Assembly: GCA_951406725.2 (NCBI GenBank)
Contig: OX597828.1
Coordinates: 3,906,001 to 3,970,000, forward strand
From: Octopus vulgaris
Lineage: Eukaryota
Direction: 5' to 3'
DNA length: 64,000 nt
In this document: positions 9,413 through 16,722 of the stretch, in pieces
Numbering within the stretch: position 1 is the first letter of the stretch
How the letters are laid out: every line of letters starts with the position of its first letter
Translations under genes and position numbers: made by a program
The notes under the pieces: model-generated
What the model saw: only the letters and a program-made list of their open reading frames with translations
What the model was told of the DNA's origin: nothing
Database searches by the model: none

Positions 9413-9740
9413 TTTTGATTGGGTCAACATGTGCGGAACCATTTATAATTTGAACACTTCCTAGTTATGTTATCTTTTGCTCCGATGAGTAATGCTATCG
9501 TTATTTTTTTCTTACCAGTTAATCTAAGTGACCTTACATCCTCAATCGCACCTGCATTATTTTTTCGTATCTTTACCACACGAGTTCTATTTATGCCTTT
9601 GTGCATAAGTAAATGCATATTACACACACACACACACGCACACACACACACACACGCAAACACACACACACACACGCACACACACACACACATATATATA
9701 TACTTTCCCCTTTATATATTTATACATACATATATCGAAA

Positions 9741-9880
9741 GAAAGTTTTGTTAACGCACTAAAAAGTATTTTGTTTATTGTACGACATTACTTAGCTTGC
9801 TTCATGCAACATAATTTACTCGAGCATGGCGTCTTATCGCACGTAATCATTAGATAGTTTTATTGTTTTCTTGAAAGGAA
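9741..9880 (+). repeat. Diverged direct duplicate of 14585-14720
   Basis: Shared AAAGTTTTGTTAACGCACTAAAAA...CTCGAGCATGGCGTCTTATCGC...AAAGGAA. Confidence 0.85.
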
Positions 9881-10041
9881 ATATATATATATATATATAT
9901 ATTTATGTGTGTGCGTGTGTGTCCATGTATTTGAACTCATTTGTTTTCGTATTTCATGTAGTATACAGTTGGTGACGTCCTGTACCCATATATGCATATG
10001 TATACATAATACATACATACGTACATAATGCATACATACAT

Positions 10042-10096
<55 letters not shown>

Positions 10097-10101
<5 letters not shown>

Positions 10102-10253
10102 TCTAATGAGTTCAGTATGTGGCAAAGTAATTTATTTTACTAAGCCCTTATATATAATGTAATATTTTGAATTCGCCTAAAATGGTCCCTTTACATACTG
10201 AATACTTGGTGAAATTGATTAATAATTAATTAATTTTACCCTCAATTGTTGAA

Positions 10254-10255
<2 letters not shown>
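10097..10255 (+). repeat. Older, diverged 3' fragment of the 561-bp hammerhead repeat unit, flanked by (TA)n
   Basis: Matches the end of the array (~13880-14037) with scattered substitutions and ends at the same CAATTGTTGAAAT. Confidence 0.9.
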
Positions 10256-10285
<30 letters not shown>

Positions 10286-10984
10286 TAATATTTCATTGAA
10301 CACCACCCATCCATTTCCAAGTAAGTTTATCTTACTCTTTTTTATGTGACTCTACTCTATACTGTTTTCTTCCTCATATTTTTCTCCCCTTCACTGTTTT
10401 CTATCTGTCTTTTTCTCTACTTTTCTCTTTTTCTCTATCTTGTTGCTCATACGCAACCATTGCCTATCTCTCTTTTCCTCGCGTGATAATCTTTCTTTTC
10501 CTTCAGGACTGCCTTAAGGACAGGACGTATTCCACCTCTCTCTTCTATCTTTTCTCTTTTCAAAGAAGATATTTTCCAGCATTCGCTATTCTGCCTTCTT
10601 TCTGGCCTAACGACCCTCCATGTTTGTTTTCGTTCGGTTTCCCTGTATGTTTCCACTGACCTGGTTTTGTTCCTAACTTTGACACCCATAAATCCCAAAT
10701 TATATTTTCGTACTTATGGGAGCAACTATCCTCGAAGACTCATATTGTCGTTTAATGCTCGATATAAGGAGTAGATAAACAGCCGAAAACTGATAAAGGG
10801 TCGTTCTTTATGTTACTTGTCCTGATTTCCATTTGTTTCTTTCTTTGTTTGCATATTGAACTCATTTGTTTTCGTATTTCAGGTTGTTTACTGTTGGTGA
10901 TCTCCTATATCCATATATGCAAATGGATATATATATATATATGTACAGACATATATCTTAATTATATATATGTATATATATATA

Positions 10985-11037
<53 letters not shown>

Positions 11038-11147
11038 TTTATAGGTTTTGTTGAATTTTCTGCTGCTTTAAATAAAGCATATTATTCTACTACTGGTATT
11101 TGAGTACTCTTTTTTTCCACCTTGTTTCACATTAATGTGTTTACTCC

Positions 11148-11247
<100 letters not shown>

Positions 11248-11251
11248 TATA

Positions 11252-11385
11252 TAGTTCTATGCGTGTATACATGTTAACATTTCTTGTCTATATTGTGATA
11301 TCTATAAAGCTTTAACCAGCACTATATTCGCAAATGTCAAAACCTTTCTTCGTATACGAAATCTCCTAAGAGCGAGATCACTGTT
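11252..11385 (+). repeat. Diverged direct duplicate of 14161-14285
   Basis: Shared TTCTTGTCTATATTG...AAATGTCAAAACCTTTCTTC...TCTCCTAAGAGCGA. Confidence 0.85.
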
Positions 11386-11699
11386 GGTGACGTCATATAC
11401 CTATATATGCATATATATATATATATATATATATACATACATATATTAATTATATATATTATGTGTATATATATAATATATATATATACGTATATATATG
11501 TGTATATAAAAATTATTACATTATATAAAAGGGCTTAGTAAAATAAATTACTTTGCCGCATACTGAACTCATTAGAAATAGCAGCTAAAAAACTTTTTTA
11601 AAGCTATTTCTAATACTTAAAGAAAATCTCTCATATATAGTGTTTGCTTAATTCAACTCACAAAAGTTTGGGGGTAAGGACATCAAAAAATCAAATGCT

Positions 11700-11770
11700 A
11701 AGGTTATTTGAGAACGTACGTTTCAAGATTAGTCAAAACGACATTTCTATCATCAGCTCAGAAACTCCTT
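11700..11770 (-). ncRNA. Type I hammerhead ribozyme fold (array copy, inverted)
   Basis: Reverse complement of the fold at 12565-12635. Confidence 0.7.
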
Positions 11771-12564
11771 GGTTTGGATTTGGAAACACTGAAAGTAAGA
11801 ACATACCCTTTCGGCTTCTCATCGCTCTCGAAGATCTGCTCGTAACTAACAGTGCCAACAAACTCAAATAAGCAAGCGAAGAATTTCTGTTCTCCCCTTT
11901 CCACCAGCGTGGGTTAAAATCATCAAACACTATGCTTATTTCGGTAAAATCCGAAGCATTAATTAGAGGGAGATTAATTATAATTTCAACAATTGAGGGT
12001 AAAATTAATTAATTATTAATCAATTTCACCAAGTGTTCAGTATGCAAAGGGACCATTTAAGGCGAATTCAAATTATTACATTATATAAAAGGGCTTAGTA
12101 AAATAAATTACTTTGCCGCATACTGAACTCATTAGAAATAGCAGCTAAAAAACTTTTTTAAAGCTATTTCTAATACTTAAAGAAAATCTCTCATATATAG
12201 TGTTTGCTTAATTCAACTCACAAAAGTTTGGGGTAAGGACATCAAAAAAGCAAATGCTAAGGTTATTTAATGCCTTAAATGGTCCCTTTGCATACTGAAC
12301 ACTTGGTGAAATTGATTAATAATTAATTAATTTTACCCTCAATTGTTGAAATTATAATTAATCTCCCTCTAATTAATGCTTCGGATTTTACCGAAATAAG
12401 CATAGTGTTTGATGATTTTAACCCACGCTGGTGGAAAGGGGAGAACAGAAATTCTTCGCTTGCTTATTTGAGTTTGTTGGCACTGTTAGTTACGAGCAGA
12501 TCTTCGAGAGCGATGAGAAGCCGAAAGGGTATGTTCTTACTTTCAGTGTTTCCAAATCCAAACC

Positions 12565-12635
12565 AAGGAGTTTCTGAGCTGATGATAGAAATGTCGTTTT
12601 GACTAATCTTGAAACGTACGTTCTCAAATAACCTT
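12565..12635 (+). ncRNA. Type I hammerhead ribozyme fold; predicted cleavage after 12622 (GUU)
   Basis: Stem I UGAG/CUCA plus UU/AA plus AAGG/CCUU; core CUGAUGA; stem II AGA/UCU and GUC/GAC; GAAAC-GUAC-GUU with palindromic ACGUACGU; U.U at 10.1-11.1 is atypical. Confidence 0.72.
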
Positions 12636-13126
12636 AGCATTTGATTTTTTGATGTCCTTACCCCCAAACTTTTTTGAGTTGAATTAAGCAAACACTATAT
12701 ATGAGAGAGATTTTCTTTAAGTATTAGAAATAGCTTTAAAAAAGTTTTTTAGCTGCTATTTCTAATGAGTTCAGTATGCGGCAAAGTAATTTATTTTACT
12801 AAGCCCTTTTATATAATGTAATAATTTGAATTCGCCTTAAATGGTCCCTTTGCATACTGAACACTTGGTGAAATTGATTAATAATTAATTAATTTTACCC
12901 TCAATTGTTGAAATTATAATTAATCTCCCTCTAATTAATGCTTCGGATTTTACCGAAATAAGCATAGTGTTTGATGATTTTAACCCACGCTGGTGGAAAG
13001 GGGAGAACAGAAATTCTTCGCTTGCTTATTTGAGTTTGTTGGCACTGTTAGTTACGAGCAGATCTTCGAGAGCGATGAGAAGCCGAAAGGGTATGTTCTT
13101 ACTTTCAGTGTTTCCAAATCCAAACC

Positions 13127-13197
13127 AAGGAGTTTCTGAGCTGATGATAGAAATGTCGTTTTGACTAATCTTGAAACGTACGTTCTCAAATAACCTT
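13127..13197 (+). ncRNA. Type I hammerhead ribozyme fold; predicted cleavage after 13184
   Basis: Same sequence as 12565-12635. Confidence 0.72.
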
Positions 13198-13687
13198 AGC
13201 ATTTCATTTTTTGATGTCCTTACCCCCAAACTTTTTGAGTTGAATTAAGCAAACACTATATATGAGAGAGATTTTCTTTAAGTATTAGAAATAGCTTTAA
13301 AAAAGTTTTTTAGCTGCTATTTCTAATGAGTTCAGTATGCGGCAAAGTAATTTATTTTACTAAGCCCTTTTATATAATGTAATAATTTGAATTCGCCTTA
13401 AATGGTCCCTTTGCATACTGAACACTTGGTGAAATTGATTAATAATTAATTAATTTTACCCTCAATTGTTGAAATTATAATTAATCTCCCTCTAATTAAT
13501 GCTTCGGATTTTACCGAAATAAGCATAGTGTTTGATGATTTTAACCCACGCTGGTGGAAAGGGGAGAACAGAAATTCTTCGCTTGCTTATTTGAGTTTGT
13601 TGGCACTGTTAGTTACGAGCAGATCTTCGAGAGCGATGAGAAGCCGAAAGGGTATGTTCTTACTTTCAGTGTTTCCAAATCCAAACC

Positions 13688-13758
13688 AAGGAGTTTCTGA
13701 GCTGATGATAGAAATGTCGTTTTGACTAATCTTGAAACGTACGTTCTCAAATAACCTT
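13688..13758 (+). ncRNA. Type I hammerhead ribozyme fold; predicted cleavage after 13745
   Basis: Same sequence as 12565-12635. Confidence 0.72.
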
Positions 13759-14037
13759 AGCATTTGATGTTTTGATGTCCTTACTCCCAAACTTTTGTGA
13801 GTTGAATTAAGCAAACACTATATATGAGAGAGATTTTCTTTAAGTATTAGAAATAGCTTTAAAAAAGTTTTTTAGCTGCTATTTCTAATGAGTTCAGTAT
13901 GCGGCAAAGTAATTTATTTTACTAAGCCCTTTTATATAATGTAATAATTTGAATTCGCCTTAAATGGTCCCTTTGCATACTGAACACTTGGTGAAATTGA
14001 TTAATAATTAATTAATTTTACCCTCAATTGTTGAAAT

Positions 14038-14071
<34 letters not shown>

Positions 14072-14121
14072 CATACATATGTGTGTGTGCATACATATGT
14101 CTGTATATTTATATATATATG

Positions 14122-14166
<45 letters not shown>

Positions 14167-16722
14167 ATATGCTTGTATACATATGAACAGTTCTTGTCTA
14201 TATTGCGATATCTCTAAAGCTTTCACCAGCACTCTGTTCACAAATGTCAAAACCTTTCTTCCTATACGATATCTCCTAAGAGCGACGTCATCAGTAGCTG
14301 AGTGCATTTGTAACTCTTTACAAAGTCACACATTATAAACTCAATATTACTAAGGATTAAATACAATTTTGATTGACAGCTTTGCATATATGATGCTTCT
14401 TTGATGCATAAATTATTAGAACATTAAGAATGTTTTCTTTCAATACTTTTGGACAATATTGCACGCAACTAACTTGGCTTAATATCTCCGCAGTTGCTTT
14501 TTTTTCCTGTCTACATCATTCTATATGTGGAATGTTGCCTAAAATCCTGTCTTTATATTCTGTTCTATCGTTTAGCATTGAAACAAAGTTTTGTTAACGC
14601 ACTAAAAACTATTTTGTTTATTGTACGACACTACTTAGCTTCATGGAATATTATTTACTCGAGCATGGCGTCTTATCGCTCATAATCATTAAATAGTTTT
14701 ATTGATTTTCTTCAAAGGAATCTATAGCTTTCAAAGTGACTCTTGTAGTTCCCGATACTGATGACAGTCAAATAACTAAAAATGCATTTATCGATTACTA
14801 GAGGGCACCCTGAGATGACTGTTGGCGTTTTAGCCCTGGTTGCCTAAATCAAAAATTTTCTCCATGGCCATCCCCCGTGAAATCGGTTTCGTTATAGGTT
14901 AAGTATTACATAAACATATTTGAACTGATTTAAATGTTTGTTTATGTGACAATTCTGTTTTGCGCTCATACTATGTATATTTTCCTCTTTTATACATTTT
15001 CCATGACACCGATGGGGTGTAAGAGGAAATGCATCCCCACATAGTAAAAATTGCACGGAGCGGAAATTACTCAAAATGCCAGTAGTGTTGTTTAGATAGG
15101 CAGTCAATTAGGTTTATCACCCAATTCGGCTATGCGTCAGTTTGAACTCAGAATGCAGAGACAGTTACTGAAAAGTAACCGGTACGACGTTCTCACAGTT
15201 ATACCAATCTTTCACGTAAGATTACTACTAGTTTTATCGCCCCCTTAAAGGGATCAAATGTAGAAGTGATATCAGGAAGATCTGAACTCAGAAAGTACTG
15301 TTGTACGTACACCCTAGGAGTTTGCTGTCGATAAGTTTAGATGTGTACAAAAATCGCATGAAAACCTCTAGCTAGTACTTTCATCATCTCCCACACCTAA
15401 CTACACTGAATTTATTCAGCCCGCAACATATTTTTGTGTCCTACTGCTTTTACAGTATAATCTAATTCCTGGTTTCTATAGCTTTTAAACCTTTCTCTTT
15501 GAATGTATGGTTGTGTATATCTGTGAATAATTACACATTCATTAAATATTCCCTCGTCCACCAACTTGTTTCCCATCACCTTATTAGTTTTCTGGTCACC
15601 GACCAATATACGTTTTGGGAAAAACAAACAATATATGGAAACAGCACAGCATTGGTACCTGCATAAATTCAAGCGATCCACTAATGATTTCACTGTTCCT
15701 TCGCTGATACAAATGTTTAAGAGTATTATCATCACGGCTTTTAAATGCATCCGCGATTTCATCGTTTTCTTATGGTTTAGAAAAAATGTATGCGTGTTTG
15801 TTATATTTTTGACTATTATTTCTTATAGTCCGGCTTCAGTGTTGGCGAGTTAGAGCAGTATCATCTGCATACCTTAGGTTGGAAACATGCAAGTCATGTA
15901 TTATAATGCTATCCTCTTCCTTTATTCCTTCTCGATTATCCAGTAAATAATTGAGCTAAAAACAATGGATAAGCAATAAGCAAGATCCATAGATGTACGC
16001 ACCCATGTGTGTATATTTATGAATATATACGTGTGTGATGTATGTGCATATAAATAGTATTTTCTGCCTAAGAAACGTACAGTATGTGAGCGAGCGAAAA
16101 TCTTAAGCGTATACATGACACTTATATATACGTAAATATTACAATAACTTTAGAGATAGACATGTATGTTGATGCATTATAGATGACTGTTTATATATCT
16201 ACACATTTCTCTGTTATCAGGAGGTATGTTGTTATGATAACATCCATATCTAAATAGTGTAACACTTGCAACTGAAACTTCTGCTATTATTAGCTTCCTG
16301 ATTACTCCTCGACAGTGAATATTCATACAAATAAAAACATTAATAAAAACAATATGAAATTATAGAAAGGCCAGTTTCTTCTCTATTTTCACCCCTCAGC
16401 AATACATAATAACTGATTCTTAATAAGATAGTGATAAATAATTTCTTTCATTAACTATTTATGGTGTCTTCAATGAAACCTTACTCTCATCCATTACACG
16501 CGAAATTGGGTCTGATTTAATTATTTAGTAGTTACAGAGTAGTTTCTAATACGAAACGCAGCCACGCAAATGTACACATGTGCATAAAACACAAACTTCC
16601 AATTCTGCATAAGGATAAGCATACATCAATACAACACAGGCAGAGATTCATACACACACAAATAACATATGTGTGCACATGTGCGAGTGTGTGTATGCAT
16701 ATATGTGTGTTTGTATATGTAT

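Follow-up and report, generated by a model that had tools for sequence, protein, structure and literature searches.

The window, a 64,000-nt stretch of the Octopus vulgaris genome, contains an insert made of two head-to-head arms of a tandemly repeated 562-bp unit. Unit positions were numbered from u1 (12623), the base 3' of the predicted cut between GTT and CTC of a type I hammerhead ribozyme. The features of the locus are as follows.

10098-10260, + strand: a further family copy with one arm only (u135 to about u292), 96% identical and with other alleles, in a neighbouring (TA)n tract
11495-11508, + strand: left target-site duplication, 14 bp, within an imperfect (TA)n tract; identical to 14038-14051
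11510-12268, - strand: inverted arm ('B' arm), u4-u562 and then u1-u205; its outer end falls on the upstream fixed site, for which the family mode is u194
11700-11770, - strand: type I hammerhead inside the inverted arm, read through intact; predicted cut 11713/11712
12269-12271, no strand: head-to-head junction, 3-nt filler AAT; alternatively u207-209 followed by a 2-nt deletion
12272-14041, + strand: direct arm ('A' arm), u212-u562, two full units, then u1-u296; its outer end falls on the downstream fixed site, u292-296
12565-12635, + strand: type I hammerhead, predicted cut after 12622; recurs at 13184 and 13745
12713-12952, + strand: u91-u330 stretch, about 70% identical in a sister hammerhead family and the sole part shared with it; contains both fixed ends
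14038-14051, + strand: right target-site duplication; its first 4 nt (TATA) coincide with u293-296

The inverted arm, read from 12268 to 11510, was 759 nt long and 98.5-99.1% identical to the unit. The direct arm was 1770 nt long, and no open frame of 110 aa or more was found across 11510-14041. The initial annotation had described an inverted arm beginning 3 nt past the predicted cut, a direct arm resuming at 12272 after 6 nt, and a multimer of about 2.5 kb once the arm is flipped. This layout was confirmed: the inverted arm reads from u4, u206-211 (GAATTC) is absent between its outer end and the start of the direct arm at u212, and the two arms total 2,529 nt. The same annotation made no mention of the 14-bp direct repeat found on both flanks, TATATGTGTATATA, which suggests that the target was cut with a stagger and that insertion was target-primed.

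The predicted ribozyme has the CUGANGA and GAAA core of a type I hammerhead (here CTGATGA and GAAA), a UH cut triplet, closed stems II and III and an open stem I. Stem I consists of TGAG/CTCA with a distal AAGG/CCTT, a U.U pair lies at the base of stem II, and the 1-bp stem III is capped by a palindromic GTAC loop. Across 76-78 loci, the 11 core columns held one non-majority letter in 852, versus 4.3% elsewhere (P ~0.004 by column, with 61% of other columns equally quiet). The stem pairs were kept across these loci, among which no compensatory changes were found, and the sister family has the same core with other stems. An Rfam scan of the window returned no match, the hammerhead not being an Rfam gathering hit. 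The hammerhead fold (-5.3 kcal/mol, versus a minimum of -12.5) is not the lowest-energy fold of the monomer, and unconstrained folding did not yield it (z near 0). According to the available text of PMC7229834, motifs with a weak stem III cleave poorly as monomers and require dimers. Self-cleavage of the predicted ribozyme is pointed to only indirectly, by the conserved core and by arm ends at u1-10 that are about twice as common as expected (see below). In three other loci, an internal deletion stops precisely at the predicted cut (16 nt long in L231 and L232, 2 nt in L245), as would be expected if a cut RNA were trimmed before being religated.

The family and its two fixed ends

A DNA search of the same genome with the unit gave 1,324 candidates. 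The junction of u295 with (TA)n was matched 1,374 times genome-wide, and the reversed control gave 0 matches; the hammerhead-bearing 562-bp retrozyme thus has at least 1,374 inserts in (TA)n. Contigs with the unit were also present in run X7, classed as RNA by guess and possibly DNA. Two samples were analysed. The unbiased sample, picked by the u295 end, comprised the first 80 of 100 listed pattern matches on one contig (C1) and numbered 79 after removal of an unrelated 186-nt insert (L085); L061, at a contig end, was excluded from the deletion-geometry test, and L139 gave no inverted-repeat call in the arm-structure analysis. The second sample, picked by a full-unit query, comprised 39 long copies and the window. 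Five of its 60 inner ends lay within 10 nt of u1 and, because a full-unit query favours inner ends near u1, this sample was left out of the cut-site test.

A second arm was joined head to head in 58/79 unbiased inserts (73%), and 21 were single-armed. The outer end of the second arm lay at u186-204 in 57 of the 58 and at u290 in one, L121, which used the u295 site twice. Among the long copies, which were not chosen by their ends, 30/40 were two-armed; 24 of these paired u285-298 with u184-206, and six had one atypical end. None of the 30 used the same site twice, where about 12 would be expected if the ends were independent (P 1.5e-7). The 58 unbiased junctions showed microhomology (29), extra bases (25) or blunt joining (4), and starts shared 1-4 nt with the target. 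Target duplications were found at the window, L038 and L031. They were scored in 9/119 inserts, of which about three were convincing, while mismatched flank pairs scored in 88/1,640; in pure (TA)n most target duplications are invisible. Inner-end stops recurred in independent inserts at u52-56, u74-90 and u151-170, more strongly than at the ribozyme site, and may mark RNA structure or breaks. The window insert is a well formed, typical member of this family, and its inversion, which is beyond chance, is the family norm.

The two arms of an insert belong together. Their median difference was 0.4%, versus 3.3% to arms of other loci (72 inserts), and in 66/72 inserts 10% or fewer of the other arms were closer than the partner arm. 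Arm lengths were correlated (rho 0.67; 0.44 outside the matched class), and the A arm exceeded the B arm by 70-120 nt, the spacing of the two fixed sites, in 24/58 inserts versus 4.5 by permutation. The inner ends of both arms lay within 25 nt of the same unit position in 25/58, as against a mean of 6.5 and a maximum of 18 in 10,000 shuffles. Two-ended priming on one RNA is therefore well supported, with the caveat that later conversion between the inverted repeats could raise arm identity. The initial annotation had proposed retrotransposition with priming at both ends of the target on a single RNA; the target duplication, the family-wide two arms and their common template lineage agree with this.

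Ribozyme site and RNA template

The initial annotation had taken the window insert as indirect evidence that the ribozyme cleaved in vivo, and had proposed as a test that the 5' ends of other copies would cluster at the cut. In the unbiased sample they were scattered: 4/136 inner ends fell at u554-u12, versus 5.1 expected from exposure, with hotspots at u71-90 (16 versus 6.1 expected) and u151-170 (16 versus 8.1). Ends were also counted genome-wide in pattern windows of five positions, with rough detection rates behind the expectations. Counts were 3 at u547-551 and 7 at u555-559 (6 without one resembling an internal deletion), versus 5.5 expected for each. At u1-5, the only set in which loci were inspected individually, 17 of 20 matches were true, versus about 7 expected (P 0.001); there were 15 at u6-10 and 8 at u11-15, versus 7 for each. 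Intact read-throughs of the ribozyme site numbered 1,865. Ends at u1-10 were thus enriched about twofold, an excess of about 3% of passages, and the two hotspots are at least as strong as this cut-site bump.

Among the 17 true ends, 12 sit at u1-u2, and in 11 of the 15 two-arm u1-5 cases both arms stop close to the cut, compared with 43% elsewhere (P 0.046); enzymes running off a cut RNA end would produce this. A natural inverted repeat of 6 bp, TCAAAT/ATTTGA (u2-7 with u17-22), is used by about 6 of the 17; together with possible stalling at stem I, this gives the bump other possible causes. A small class of templates beginning at the cut is plausible. Taken singly, the u4 end and the 6-nt gap of the window insert are not beyond chance, save for the weak genome-wide excess just 3' of the cut. 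The u4 end could represent a ribozyme-cut 5' end, a reading that we hold only tentatively, and the insert is weak evidence of cleavage in vivo. Most copies read straight through the site.

For the window insert, the initial annotation had also proposed that a linear multimer with a ribozyme-cut 5' end was copied by twin priming of the L1 type (B'A'-CD). The second primer would start three units upstream, block the first enzyme with loss of 6 nt, and run to the cut end. This model fits the window geometry exactly, and L235 combines both of its features as well (B spans u4 to u210, A runs from u204). The end excess at u1-10 relative to the positions just upstream, the concentration at u1-u2 and the paired stops near the cut also favour it. 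Only 1/58 A arms is shorter than 83 nt and six end at 83-109 nt, which is at the second site and resembles twin priming. Both units of the window's inverted arm lack an AG that is present in the direct arm, as would fit a heterogeneous linear donor. However, the inner end of the direct arm lies next to the inverted arm's outer end, as in the window, in only 8/58 unbiased inserts, seven of them with arms below 200 nt. In the long-copy sample this geometry occurred in 9/29 versus 4.1 expected (P 0.016) but did not exceed chance for long arms; with arms above 150 nt, as in the window, adjacency was found in 9/134 (P 0.65). The unbiased cut-site count, hotspots of equal strength elsewhere, the natural inverted repeat with stem I stalling, and a window end 3 nt short of the cut weigh further against this model, which we consider unlikely.

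What remained of the twin-priming proposal is that two cDNAs were made on one RNA; the family mostly lacks the L1 deletion pattern, its outer ends are fixed, and its arms usually overlap. L1 twin priming, as described in the available text of PMC2837659, likewise involves two cDNAs from one RNA, an inverted 5' part and a target duplication. Unlike L1, whose poly(A) tail primes the first strand, the elements here have no poly(A), their second site is fixed rather than chosen by target homology, and in most inserts the arms overlap where L1 would show an internal deletion. A Penelope form of priming, with fixed start sites and overlapping arms, explains the insert better than the L1 form.

In about 97% of passages the template ran unbroken through the ribozyme site, and the multimer or circle invoked by the initial annotation was borne out in our reading. 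Between these two, a monomer circle, cut and religated, is moderately favoured, and an uncut linear multimer is a serious competitor to which we give less weight. A circle would account for a hammerhead core that is conserved yet nearly always read through, for the exclusion of same-site pairs, and for L136, where the B arm laps round to meet A. In 46 inserts, 36 rare alleles were fixed in all units of an insert versus 19 that were shared and unfixed, although 15 of the 36 came from one divergent insert, L121. Against a circle, stops did not pile up after one lap (6 at u285-345 versus 8.9 expected), the AG deletion of the window is specific to one arm, and unprocessed RNA was the dominant substrate in vitro for a Penelope-like protein (available text of PMC11167929). 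Variants recur every 2 or 3 units within one arm in L042, L047, L069 and L037 and point to block duplication after insertion or to multimeric templates; the period-2 and period-3 patterns of the first three also count against a circle, as they show that arrays change after insertion.

Retrozymes and Penelope-like elements

The family has the characters of non-LTR retrozymes: its units are tandem, non-coding and dispersed, each carries a type I hammerhead, and target duplications exceed 4 bp (14 bp in the window; also L038 and L031). According to the available text of PMC7229834 and bioRxiv 10.64898/2026.07.22.740005, animal non-LTR retrozymes are likewise dispersed tandem repeats of low GC content, in which every unit has a single type I hammerhead and no open reading frame was found in the unit span, with target duplications above 4 bp. 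Two features of the present hammerhead, the U.U at the base of stem II and the 1-bp stem III with a palindromic tetraloop, each match an axolotl motif described there. The unit here is longer, at 562 bp versus the 150-450 reported. Head-to-head arms, two fixed ends and (TA)n targeting were not found mentioned in the available portions of either source, and the words 'inversion' and 'twin' do not occur in those of the bioRxiv paper, which treats retrozymes as non-autonomous Penelope derivatives and leaves the mechanism open. A search of the literature on inversions or twin priming in retrozymes or Penelope-like elements, with most subscription papers outside its reach, found no paper that reports the pattern seen here.

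A young Penelope-like family in the same genome (L180-L195; for example, L183:2244-7490) contains numerous intact RT-GIY-YIG frames of 781 aa, with a frame upstream that reaches 479 aa, together with a pseudo-LTR of about 500 bp and a 33-nt tail. No canonical hammerhead was found in it. This intact element also inserts in (TA)n and has two 3' ends about 33 nt apart. Among 16 fetched copies two were head-to-head (L185 and L187), each with one end of each kind. Among 46 GIY-YIG loci, which were drawn from 150 scored of 6,136 candidates and belong mostly to one family, DNA similarity revealed no autonomous element sharing sequence with the unit, and a hammerhead scan for a partner element found none. 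The enzyme was thus assigned by geometry and target alone.

A sister non-coding family (1,795 candidates, period about 580-590) shares only u91-330 and the same two ends with the 562-bp unit. Its hammerhead has a long stem II (about 55 nt), a palindromic GCGC loop and the same weak stem III. Its inserts are likewise two-ended and head-to-head (L157:2505-2790, L219, L220, L224 and others in L196-L225). From this sequence comparison, u91-u330 may be a binding module for the mobilizing enzyme.

Penelope-like elements were reported with an inverted 5'-truncated copy, a tail at one end and (TA)n targets, the mechanism being left open (PMC8557442), and the present family likewise has an inverted 5'-truncated copy with a tail at one end only. 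Endonuclease-bearing members resemble the present family in the head-to-head inverted copy, the one-end extension, palindromic junctions and AT-rich or (TA)n targets. In the available text of PMC11167929, a Penelope-like protein, by prediction a dimer, cuts both strands in vitro and extends each of them, and two internal RNA start sites define the genomic 'tail'. As in the unit here, a hammerhead lies upstream of these sites and copying is independent of the cut; ribozyme cleavage was dispensable and no RNA-seq ends lay at the cut. The family differs from Penelope-like elements in being a 562-bp element without protein, with inversion in most inserts, a tail of about 100 nt versus 30-40 in described elements, starts sharing 1-4 nt with the target, and no sequence link found to an autonomous element.

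Mechanism of integration

The window insert probably records one insertion of a non-coding, hammerhead-bearing tandem element into a TA microsatellite. The likely agent is a borrowed Penelope-type RT-endonuclease pair, which would have primed both DNA ends on a single RNA, using two fixed sites separated by about 100 nt. Behind this reading stand several observations: the structure with its target duplication, the presence of one fixed end of each type in an insert, arms that share a template lineage and are correlated in length, and read-through at the ribozyme site. The enzyme would bind u91-330 and cut both target strands with a stagger of about 14 nt. Of the two cDNAs, one would begin close to u295 and the second close to u194-205. 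The rear enzyme would follow and displace the front cDNA, and both would often halt at the same RNA position through collision or an RNA break. Microhomology, a blunt join or a template jump would then link the two cDNA ends head to head. The repeated u295 site in L121, the 21/79 single-armed inserts and the long tail count against a Penelope-type explanation.

Palindromic head-to-head Penelope junctions have been read as self-priming (available text of PMC3846280), and by analogy one cDNA or antisense template might fold back, prime itself and be copied back, its free end being resolved later at a TA-rich site. The near-palindromic character of 25/58 junctions would suit such folding, as would a spacer templated on the A side in L089, L093, L146 and L149. 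The other 33 junctions are non-palindromic, as is the window's, and in L113 the spacer is 0 nt with no natural palindrome. In L078, L079, L090, L096, L130 and L143, a B arm of sub-unit length passes the start of A, while A carries u195-295, which is absent from B; each arm holds parts that the other lacks, so neither is a copy of the other. We consider fold-back improbable. Priming of the two ends by separate RNAs (dual priming, proposed for L1 in the available text of PMC2837659), or the meeting of two insertions in one microsatellite, is more improbable still. It is true that (TA)n tracts draw several elements, with Penelope-like copies beside L047 and L120, but shared subfamily alleles, correlated lengths, matched inner ends and mutually exclusive sites largely refute both, as do window arms only 0.18% apart versus a median of 2.55% to 99 other arms; only conversion between the arms could still rescue them. 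An assembly error or a chimeric long read is the least credible source of the junction. The window junction is not among the head-to-head joints listed from short-read contigs, but the contigs of three other runs (X1-X3) contain at least 14 such joints of the family, each on one contig with 22-29 letters on the shorter side. The same architecture with fixed outer ends recurs in both samples, the target duplication is intact, and the arms differ at several sites.

The paired priming preferred here may reach beyond this family. As a speculative generalization, Penelope-type enzymes might normally integrate by paired simultaneous reverse transcription, in which a dimer begins at both ends of the target, using two fixed sites of a single RNA circle made by the ribozyme; a strand-displacing chase, collision and head-to-head joining would account, within one reaction, for the inverted repeats as well as for the one-sided tail and tandem arrays. 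If this is true, the family has recorded the process in more than 1,000 inserts. The inverted copies and one-sided tail of Penelope-like elements were known already, their cause left open or ascribed to self-priming, and retrozymes had been proposed on phylogenetic grounds to borrow Penelope machinery. The family would tie a retrozyme to Penelope-type integration by mechanism, with a 240-nt RNA module, two start sites and a candidate enzyme from the same genome. A circular intermediate would also be expected to leave a ribozyme that is conserved although it is read through. Its value lies in the family-wide footprint: a short non-coding element provides insertion-level footprints in large numbers, several with matched stops that fold-back cannot make, and offers a test bed for how Penelope inversions form.

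Further repeats accompany (TA)n tracts in this genome. In L202 (about 1290-1870), three tandem copies of a sister-family fragment are each followed by their own (TA)n run (period about 197 bp). The window insert is surrounded by older duplications that are 79-89% identical (9734-9880 versus 14577-14720, and 11150-11375 versus 14050-14285). Three paralogous tracts (9931-10097, 10856-11043 and 11380-11525) precede (TA)n runs, of which one (10890-11043) is empty and two hold family copies.
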